From: Gammaproteobacteria bacterium
GTDB taxonomy: Bacteria; Pseudomonadota; Gammaproteobacteria; Ga0077536
Assembly: GCA_021773835.1 (NCBI GenBank)
Contig: JAJFJQ010000060.1
Span: forward strand, 8,540 to 72,539
DNA length: 64,000 bases
Direction: 5' to 3'
Below are positions 59,150 to 61,032 of the stretch, in pieces. The notes below the pieces were generated by a model that saw only the letters and a program-made list of their open reading frames with translations, did not search any database and was not told the DNA's origin. Positions within the stretch are counted from its first letter, which is position 1, and each line of letters starts with the position of its first letter. The translations under genes were made by a program, and so were the position numbers.

Positions 59150-59767
59150 TTACGGCCCTTCTTTGAGGTTCAAGATCGGATTCAATGCGCTAAGTAGATA
59201 GGTGATCAAGGCTGTGGCGACCAACTCTATTATTGCGGCGTCGCCGTATCCGGCGTCGCGTAGGCCTTGCACATCCGCATCTTTAACTTGGTTTGGATGA
59301 AACGCCGCCTTGACGCCAAAGTCCACAGCAATACGCGTCGCCGGATCGAGATCCGTCTGCTCAATTGTGCCACTGGATAGCGCCAGGATCGCTTCCTCAT
59401 TTGCGCCTTCTAGCCGCGCGGCGCCCGCATGGTAGGGCGCACATACGGCGTTTAGTTCCTGTTCGTTCTCCTTGGCGACAGCAATCGCAATCAGCTCCTT
59501 TACGCGCGACGGCACCTCCCCCTGCTTCATCGCGTGATGTTCCGTTTGGAACACGCCATAGAAGATATCGGGTTTGAGGGCGAGGGCGCGCAGTGTCACC
59601 GCGCCATAGAAAGCCCCGCGGGGAACCCCAGGGATTGCCTCAAGCCCGTCTTTGATCAACTCAAAGTGCCGTTTAAGCTCCGGCGGCGCGTTGTCTTCCA
59701 ACTCGCGTAGCCGTTCGGGTTCAGCCAGTTGGATCCGGAAAGCATCACTTGGATCAGCCATCGTCAC
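59150..59767 (-). CDS. Carboxymuconolactone decarboxylase (CMD)/AhpD-like family protein
   Basis: 205 aa, helical AhpD-like pattern. Moderate confidence on family. Confidence 0.6.
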   Translation of the reverse strand: MTMADPSDAFRIQLAEPERLRELEDNAPPELKRHFELIKDGLEAIPGVPRGAFYGAVTLRALALKPDIFYGVFQTEHHAMKQGEVPSRVKELIAIAVAKENEQELNAVCAPYHAGAARLEGANEEAILALSSGTIEQTDLDPATRIAVDFGVKAAFHPNQVKDADVQGLRDAGYGDAAIIELVATALITYLLSALNPILNLKEGP

Positions 59768-59784: not shown

Positions 59785-60984
59785 CTAGACCATGGCCAAC
59801 GCGTGGATTTCATGCAAATACCCCTCTTGCCAGAGCCCGGTAGTGCCGGTTGCGGTCCACGCCGGCCCATTACCGCTGTTAAAGCGTGGTCGGGCCGCAT
59901 CCATTACTTCTGGTATCGCACGTGGGTCTTTGTGAAAAGAGATGATCTCCACCACGTCAGACAGTCCAGCGCCGAATCCATCGAGGATGAGTTCGATCTG
60001 ATCAAAATCATAGGCAGTCTGCGCCGCGATGTCGCCCGATCCGACGATCGCCCCGTCACCGTCTGACGCTACCTGACCGGCGACACCTATCAAGGAGCCA
60101 CCTTTTTTCATGGAGCCGCCGGACACCGGTAGCGTGCGCCACCAGATCGTATCTGGGGTGCTCGCGATGCGCTGGCCACTGCCGAGATCCGCGATCACCT
60201 TATACTCGCCAAGTAATCCGGGCATCGCGAGCCCGGTCGTCCCGATAGCGGTCCATGGCGCGGCGTTTGGTATTGCAGTGGCGCCAAAAATATCGTTCCG
60301 CTTGCACACCGACTCGGCGGCAAGGTCCATGCCGCGTGGGTCGACGTGAAATGAATGCAGATCGACGATGTCGTCGAGCGACCCGCCTGCCATATCGAGC
60401 ACCGAGCGTATGCCATCGAAGGCATGGACCGCATGTGCCGCATGGTCGCCATGGTCTAACACATTGCCTTTGGCATCTGCCCCAACGCAGCCAGAAATGA
60501 ACAAAAGGTCGCCTTTGCGACACGCTGCTGACATCGGGAAAGCGCGAAAGAACTCGAGCCGATCGGGGTTGTAGCAGATCTTCTCACCCGCACCGAGATG
60601 GGCAATCGCCTTGATATTAATCAGTTGCTCGGGTTCGTAAGTTCCCTGGCTCCCAATCGCCGTCCAGGCCGGCGCATCGCTCGGAAAATACTTTGCTGCC
60701 ACTTCGGCAACGGCGCCGAGATCGCGGATGTCCTTATGGAAGGAAACGAGGTCGAGCACATCATCCAGGCTACCACCAGCCTCTTCAACCAATGCCTGAA
60801 TGCTATCGAAGACGTGCGCCGCTTGACCACGCGAATCGCCTGGAGCGACGATGCTGCCGTCGGCTGCGGCCGCTACCTGGCCGCTAATAAACAGGAGATC
60901 GCCGGCACGTACCGCCGACGATGCCGGGAACCCGTGGAACCAGTCGTGCGACTTTGGATTGTAGAAGGTCTTATCCATGCTCAT
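59785..60984 (-). CDS. Triple tandem Rid (YjgF/RidA-family) domain protein. All three repeats lack the RidA catalytic Arg.
   Basis: 399 aa = 3 x ~133 aa. Repeated GDLLFISGQVA / GDLLFISGCVG / GSLIGVAGQVA; SFHKD x3; (A/G)PAWTA(I/T)G x3, where canonical RidA has PARSAV. Confidence 0.75.
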   Translation of the reverse strand: MSMDKTFYNPKSHDWFHGFPASSAVRAGDLLFISGQVAAAADGSIVAPGDSRGQAAHVFDSIQALVEEAGGSLDDVLDLVSFHKDIRDLGAVAEVAAKYFPSDAPAWTAIGSQGTYEPEQLINIKAIAHLGAGEKICYNPDRLEFFRAFPMSAACRKGDLLFISGCVGADAKGNVLDHGDHAAHAVHAFDGIRSVLDMAGGSLDDIVDLHSFHVDPRGMDLAAESVCKRNDIFGATAIPNAAPWTAIGTTGLAMPGLLGEYKVIADLGSGQRIASTPDTIWWRTLPVSGGSMKKGGSLIGVAGQVASDGDGAIVGSGDIAAQTAYDFDQIELILDGFGAGLSDVVEIISFHKDPRAIPEVMDAARPRFNSGNGPAWTATGTTGLWQEGYLHEIHALAMV

Positions 60985-61032
60985 CCTCCAAGTATAGGAC
61001 GGAGATCAGTGATTAAATACCACACACCCCGG

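Follow-up and report, generated by a model that had tools for sequence, protein, structure and literature searches.

Tandem fusions of three Rid domains were reported by Niehaus et al. (2015, BMC Genomics 16:382) as '3x-RidA' proteins and described as 'presumably covalently linked trimer units' (PMC4433059). A literature search for characterised 3x-Rid proteins or newer Rid4-Rid7 biochemistry returned that study alone as relevant. Arg105 of RidA serves as a carboxylate clamp that is needed for deaminase activity, and its replacement by Trp is the hallmark of the Rid4 and Rid7 subfamilies (PMC4433059). The Rid7 protein of S. enterica, the sole Trp-type Rid to have been assayed, was without imine hydrolase activity, with other substrate classes unreported (PMC4433059). 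The 2015 classification of the family left the roles of the Arg-less subfamilies Rid4 to Rid7 as a standing issue.

The gene analyzed here lies within a 64,000-nucleotide stretch of gammaproteobacterial DNA (the window; GC content 54.7%) and encodes three tandem Rid domains in one chain. The 3x-RidA of Enterococcus faecalis V583 (EF_0115) likewise has three tandem Rid domains in about 400 aa and is uncharacterised; however, 3x-RidA was filed by Niehaus et al. under the RidA subfamily, whereas all three domains here are of the Trp type, a comparison in which EF_0115 is known by description only. Common to this protein and Rid7/YjgH (YjgH, 1pf5; S. enterica STM1549) are the exchange of Arg105 for Trp, the motifs SFH-x-DP and (P/N)WTA, and the Glu120 equivalent, which is kept here in domain 3 and, in the subclade of the window, also in domain 2. 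Unlike Rid7, in which free ~130-aa monomers assemble into homotrimers whose three sites are identical, the present protein is a single chain of copies 34-45% identical to one another, and has lost the Tyr17 equivalent in all three domains and the Glu in domain 1.

More than 300 clusters of full-length homologues were recovered, and other 3x-Rid fusions proved frequent, three Rid domains being present in 116 of the 150 top-ranking representative relatives. Cultivable carriers of the gene include Marinibaculum pumilum, Amycolatopsis, and Kibdelosporangium aridum. When 108 three-domain representatives were typed by their Arg105 column, 90 had no Arg in any domain; the types RRR (10), SSS (8), and WWW (7) were present together with many mixed ones. 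The novelty implied by the original prediction was not upheld, as such fusions were published in 2015 and Arg-less three-domain Rid proteins are common among the relatives. Since both 3x-Rid fusions and Arg-less Rid proteins are described and common, the protein is an unstudied example of a widespread, already described architecture rather than a novel type of protein. Assignment to the PD-T4-2 anti-phage system (PADLOC) was rejected: of the PD-T4-2_B profile, only the C-terminal, Rid-like portion (positions 189-293 of 294) matched one domain (E 1.1e-14), and the neighboring genes had no PADLOC match.

Gene, domains and predicted fold

An open reading frame of 399 codons, counted from the first ATG, was confirmed at window positions 59785 to 60984 and lies on the minus strand, which had previously been left unspecified. 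The second ATG (60976-60978) is probably the real start, because the GGAGG at 60985-60989 abuts the first ATG yet lies 6 nt upstream of the second, and because the 397-aa form is the public call, an identical product being present among NCBI and Logan gene calls. The gene would then span 59785 to 60978 (minus strand; 397 codons, TAG stop at 59785-59787), with the listed reading frame starting 6 nt earlier at 60984. Residue numbering herein follows the 399-codon frame, such that domain 1 comprises aa 3-133.

Pfam PF01042 (Ribonuc_L-PSP) matched three stretches of the protein with 171.6 bits (E 7.8e-51), above the gathering cutoff of 27.3, placing it in the Rid (YjgF/YER057c/UK114) superfamily. 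On the minus strand, domain 1 occupies 60586 to 60978 (Pfam stretch 22-129), domain 2 occupies 60187 to 60585 (aa 134-266), and domain 3 occupies 59788 to 60186 (aa 267-399). Pairwise blastp of the units, each ~133 aa, returned E 4e-35 and 45% identity for domains 1 and 2, 1e-25 and 39% for domains 1 and 3, and 2e-23 and 34% for domains 2 and 3. Judged by sequence, the three units are clearly homologous to one another, with a similarity far above chance. Three Rid domains in one polypeptide, as originally predicted, are thus supported by both the Pfam stretches and the internal blastp matches (1e-23 to 4e-35). The repeated motifs GDLLFISGQVA (aa 28), GDLLFISGCVG (aa 158), and GSLIGVAGQVA (aa 296) were each found exactly as listed. 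The motif SFHKD, said to occur three times, was present at aa 81 and aa 349, while the middle copy reads SFHVD (aa 211).

The single-chain pseudo-trimer that had been proposed for modelling was recovered by AlphaFold2 (AF2) with a pLDDT of 96 and a pTM of 0.94, giving a predicted fold like that of a Rid trimer. Its secondary structure (beta1, two strands, helix, strand, helix, two strands) is repeated three times, in agreement with the chorismate-mutase-like beta-alpha-beta-alpha-beta-beta fold and a threefold barrel. The chain would close into the same triangular barrel as three separate Rid subunits, as expected if three putatively ancient copies of a Rid7/YjgH-like domain, since diverged, make up a cytoplasmic pseudo-trimer within one chain.

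The best whole-chain Foldseek matches were the chorismatases 5ag3, 5a3k, and 4bps, with a target TM of 0.64-0.68 over 355-366 aligned columns. A chorismatase-like or ring-opening (Toblerone-type) enzyme, i.e. a true member of a characterised single-chain YjgF-derived family, is a very improbable reading. Identity to the chorismatases FkbO, Hyg5, and XanB2 (4bps, 5a3k, 5ag3) is only 14-16%, those proteins are ~60 residues shorter, and neither a chorismatase nor an AtzD/barbiturase family was matched in Pfam and NCBIfam scans, which returned generic Rid models only; membership in both was rejected. In contrast to the chorismatases, the repeats here are still recognisably canonical Rid domains in a genomic context unrelated to chorismate use, with no shikimate, polyketide or triazine genes nearby. 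In the AtzD/barbiturase 'Toblerone' enzymes (5hwe), the central barrel houses the active site, which comprises Ser-Lys dyads and a metal site; the present protein has no sequence similarity to AtzD and no sequence-family match to such a site, and its conserved residues instead fall at the classical inter-domain pocket positions.

Tryptophan at the RidA arginine position

Absence of the RidA catalytic Arg from all three domains, the central claim of the original prediction, was borne out. In a domain-HMM alignment including E. coli RidA, Trp107 of domain 1 (codon 60664-60666), Trp244 of domain 2 (60253-60255), and Trp376 of domain 3 (59857-59859), all on the minus strand, fall in the Arg105 column. 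HMMER likewise paired 'PARVAV' of PH0854 with 'PAWTAI' of domain 1, and 'NWTAVG' of YjgH with 'PWTAIG' of domain 2 and 'AWTATG' of domain 3. Across 79 homologues no conserved Arg was found within 5 residues of the Arg105 column in any domain, and none of the 79 family members carried Arg in the column itself. An Arg that is present but misaligned was therefore ruled out by three independent alignments together with the column counts. The motif PAWTA, assigned to every copy, holds for domain 1 (aa 105) and domain 3 (aa 374), while domain 2 reads AAPWTA (PWTA at aa 243); the Trp itself is aligned in all three.

A Trp in all three domains is of the Rid4/Rid7 type, which upholds the proposed placement with the Arg-less subfamilies (PMC4433059). 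The combination ascribed to Rid7/YjgH-like proteins (Niehaus 2015), Trp for Arg105 with Glu120 kept, was found in domains 2 and 3, domain 1 having the Trp and not the Glu. The literature defines this subfamily by the NCBI CDD model YjgH_like; as a proxy for it, E. coli YjgH (1pf5) was the best PDB sequence match for domain 2 (E 8.5e-16) and domain 3 (E 3.7e-10) but not for domain 1, where the RidA-type PH0854 was slightly ahead of YjgH. The Trp is shared with Rid4, to which the protein may alternatively belong. The RidA pocket set (Tyr17, Gly31, Asn88, Glu120) is incomplete in this protein: Gly31 is kept in all domains, whereas in domains 1, 2, and 3, respectively, Tyr17 is replaced by A/M/V, Asn88 by A/A/M, and Glu120 corresponds to N/E/E (Asn123 in domain 1). 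Furthermore, the protein fell short of the 106.25-bit cutoff of the curated RidA model TIGR00004, reaching 101.1 bits even when the three domains were summed. Because the clamp Arg and the Tyr17 equivalent are absent from all three domains, the sequence makes it most likely that this is not a RidA-type 2-iminoacid/enamine deaminase.

Asymmetric conservation of the inter-domain pockets

Conservation was counted by column across 119 sequences. Trp376 and Glu392, the Glu120 equivalent of domain 3 (codon 59809-59811, minus strand), were invariant (119/119 each), and Trp107 was present in 118. Trp244 was retained in 55 of the 119, with Y, T, V or L as replacements across the wider family, and Glu260 in 14; both are kept within the subclade of at least 57% identity and relaxed in the wider family. 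Position 123 of domain 1 was occupied by S, V, N or C and never by Glu. Thus domain 3 alone retains both Glu and Trp family-wide. Domain 3 also evolves most slowly, with a mean column entropy of 1.16 (1.60 and 1.57 for domains 1 and 2) and a between-protein identity of 60% (49% and 48.5%). Domain-specific divergence had been anticipated, and the asymmetry, with Glu invariant in domain 3 alone and a relaxed Trp in domain 2, agrees with it. What is new here, at the level of sequence, is an asymmetric pseudo-trimer in which domain 3 is the most conserved and alone has an invariant Glu120 equivalent (E392), while the Trp of domain 2 is relaxed across the family.

Adjacent subunits of RidA trimers pair through the N-terminal segment of the one and the C-terminal segment of the other (PMC7311433). 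In TdcF, a hydrogen bond joins Glu120 to the Arg105/Cys107 strand on the other side of the subunit interface (PMC1884159). Such neighbor pairing fits the short, 6-residue linkers between the Rid domains and would set the Glu of one domain against the Trp of the following domain. From this literature and the conservation pattern we infer which domains pair in each pocket, including domain 3 with domain 1. Covalent fusion may have freed the three inter-domain pockets from the need to be identical. The first putative pocket would join the domain 3 Glu side (E392, G303) to the domain 1 Trp side (P105-A106-W107-T108), with all of its Rid7-type residues kept family-wide. In the second, E260 (domain 2) would face W376 (domain 3), a pocket apparently intact in the subclade of the window and decayed elsewhere. 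In the third, residue 123 of domain 1 (N/S, and never Glu) would face W244 (domain 2). In sister W-type clusters with the domain 3 Glu, the domain 1 Trp was kept in 4 of 5 and the domain 2 Trp in 1 of 5. The domain 3 Glu is replaced in the sister W-type 3x clusters LHCI, LHAV, and LHAL, and Glu-based catalysis is accordingly not universal for Trp-type 3x-Rid proteins.

Genomic context and proposed role

Downstream of the 3x-Rid gene, 23 nt past its stop codon, lies a gene for an AhpD/CMD-like protein (59150 to 59761, minus strand; 203 aa from the ATG at 59761). It matched Pfam CMD (E 2.6e-6) and, below cutoff, NCBIfam TIGR01926 'peroxidase-related'. Its motif N-x-x-C-x-P-Y-H contains a single Cys (C107) where AhpD has CxxC, as seen also in the alignment to its AhpD-like PDB profile matches (6k40, 2oyo). 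The AF2 model (pLDDT 93.9) is all-helical, with Foldseek TM of 0.70-0.75 to 2prr and 6k40. In addition to the window, this partner was found 9-45 nt downstream of 3x-Rid in six otherwise unrelated contexts, one of them transposase-flanked. Identities were 85, 81, 80, 73, and 60% for the partner and 93, 80, 80, 77, and 59% for the Rid protein, i.e. the two are co-diverging. The CMD gene, one of the neighbors on which the original prediction drew, is the sole conserved neighbor, but only in the subclade in which both proteins are at least 59% identical. A partner HMM had no match in loci L001-L070, and distant partner homologues occurred in unrelated contexts with no 3x-Rid linkage, so a universal partnership was rejected. 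As the link is specific to one subclade, it tells little about core function.

Amidase and hydantoinase genes had been taken as the functional clue, and this did not survive comparison. In tblastn searches of all window neighbors against 70 homologous loci there was no consistent linkage, and amidase, hydantoinase, DUF1329, and LLM genes were rejected as conserved partners, with one further hydantoinase co-occurrence (L078). In tblastn searches with cluster representatives, other clades had contexts of their own: a CocE/NonD-type (Peptidase_S15) hydrolase with a 1x Rid at 23 loci, the hydrolase pairing being that of an alphaproteobacterial clade, and an SDR at ~20 loci.

These contexts bear on whether the protein is an enamine/imine deaminase acting on non-alpha-carboxylate substrates from amide, lactam or heterocycle breakdown. 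This reading, in line with the original prediction and with the database names 'enamine deaminase RidA' and 'Rid family hydrolase', we regard as unlikely. RutC, a 3-aminoacrylate deaminase (PMC8113886), is the top NCBIfam similarity (E 4e-35); no further than 2.5 kb from the gene are an AtzE-like amidase and a hydantoinase A/B fusion that resembles caprolactamase; HydA/HydB are also near a second close homologue (L078); and the hydrolase coupling of the alphaproteobacterial clade recalls RutB/RutD with RutC. However, most homologous contexts are without amidase and hydantoinase, and unlike the RidA/RutC deaminases the protein falls below both curated cutoffs (RutC and TIGR00004, three domains summed). 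The essential Arg105 is moreover Trp here, and Rid7 was inactive on imines (PMC4433059).

A role as an endoribonuclease or translation inhibitor is suggested by the Pfam family name 'Endoribonuclease L-PSP' and by ribonuclease activity reported for some Rid proteins, e.g. rat L-PSP (cited in PMC4433059). It is highly unlikely given that the conserved neighbors are all small-molecule enzymes, RNA-related genes are not linked, and the name is historical, the field regarding the family as metabolite-directed (PMC4433059).

An early proposal for TdcF was the sensing of 2-ketobutyrate, and the FIST pseudo-trimer of FBXO22 serves in protein recognition. By analogy, the 3x-Rid protein could lack catalysis and act as a ligand-binding protein, sensor or scaffold, binding a metabolite or a partner (e.g. 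the AhpD-like protein) without turnover. The loss of the RidA catalytic Arg and Tyr from all three domains is consistent with this, as are the inactivity of Rid7 in its only published assay (PMC4433059) and the binding of several carboxylates by TdcF, with turnover not known in that study (PMC1884159). We nevertheless consider a pure binder improbable: the invariant Glu, the P-A-W-T strand, and the Gly at classical pocket positions resemble a maintained active site, and the operon mates are enzymes (hydrolase, SDR, AhpD-like) and not regulators.

The most likely role is that of a non-deaminase small-molecule enzyme or binder in which one or two pockets out of three are in use. As the best explanation, held tentatively and at somewhat less than even odds, we favor a Rid7/YjgH-like single-chain pseudo-trimer with one kept pocket and a non-deaminase small-molecule role. 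The domain architecture, the predicted fold, the pattern of residues with its asymmetric conservation, and the link to the partner gene are established; beyond these, we infer catalysis and the kind of substrate: a small metabolite would be bound and probably converted by acid/base chemistry (tautomerisation, hydrolysis or elimination) via the domain 3 Glu, in analogy to the chorismatases, which have the same fold and a C-terminal Glu in one pocket. In the subclade of the window, the protein may act jointly with the co-transcribed one-Cys AhpD/CMD-like protein. This explanation is weakened in that no Trp-type Rid has a demonstrated metabolite-directed activity, and in that a binding, sensing or scaffold role gives the same sequence pattern.

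A bolder and rather doubtful proposal is that Trp-type 3x-Rid proteins form a distinct enzyme class, in which one pocket (E392 and a Trp-lined wall) is specialised for a non-imine reaction on a substrate without an alpha-carboxylate and the other pockets have decayed. If true, it would offer one mutable site and defined operon partners (the one-Cys AhpD-like protein, and the CocE/NonD hydrolase or SDR). Because the sites are non-equivalent, such proteins would make the biochemistry of the Arg-less Rid4-Rid7 subfamilies more accessible to experiment.

For annotation, the protein is corrected to one that is most likely not a RidA deaminase, that probably starts at the second ATG, and whose conserved partner is AhpD-like and not amidase or hydantoinase. 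As the three pockets evolve independently within one chain, conservation reveals which pocket features matter, namely the domain 3 Glu and the Trp strands of domains 1 and 3, and the operon partners could steer a substrate search. The protein is thus a modest lead for biochemists of the Rid family.

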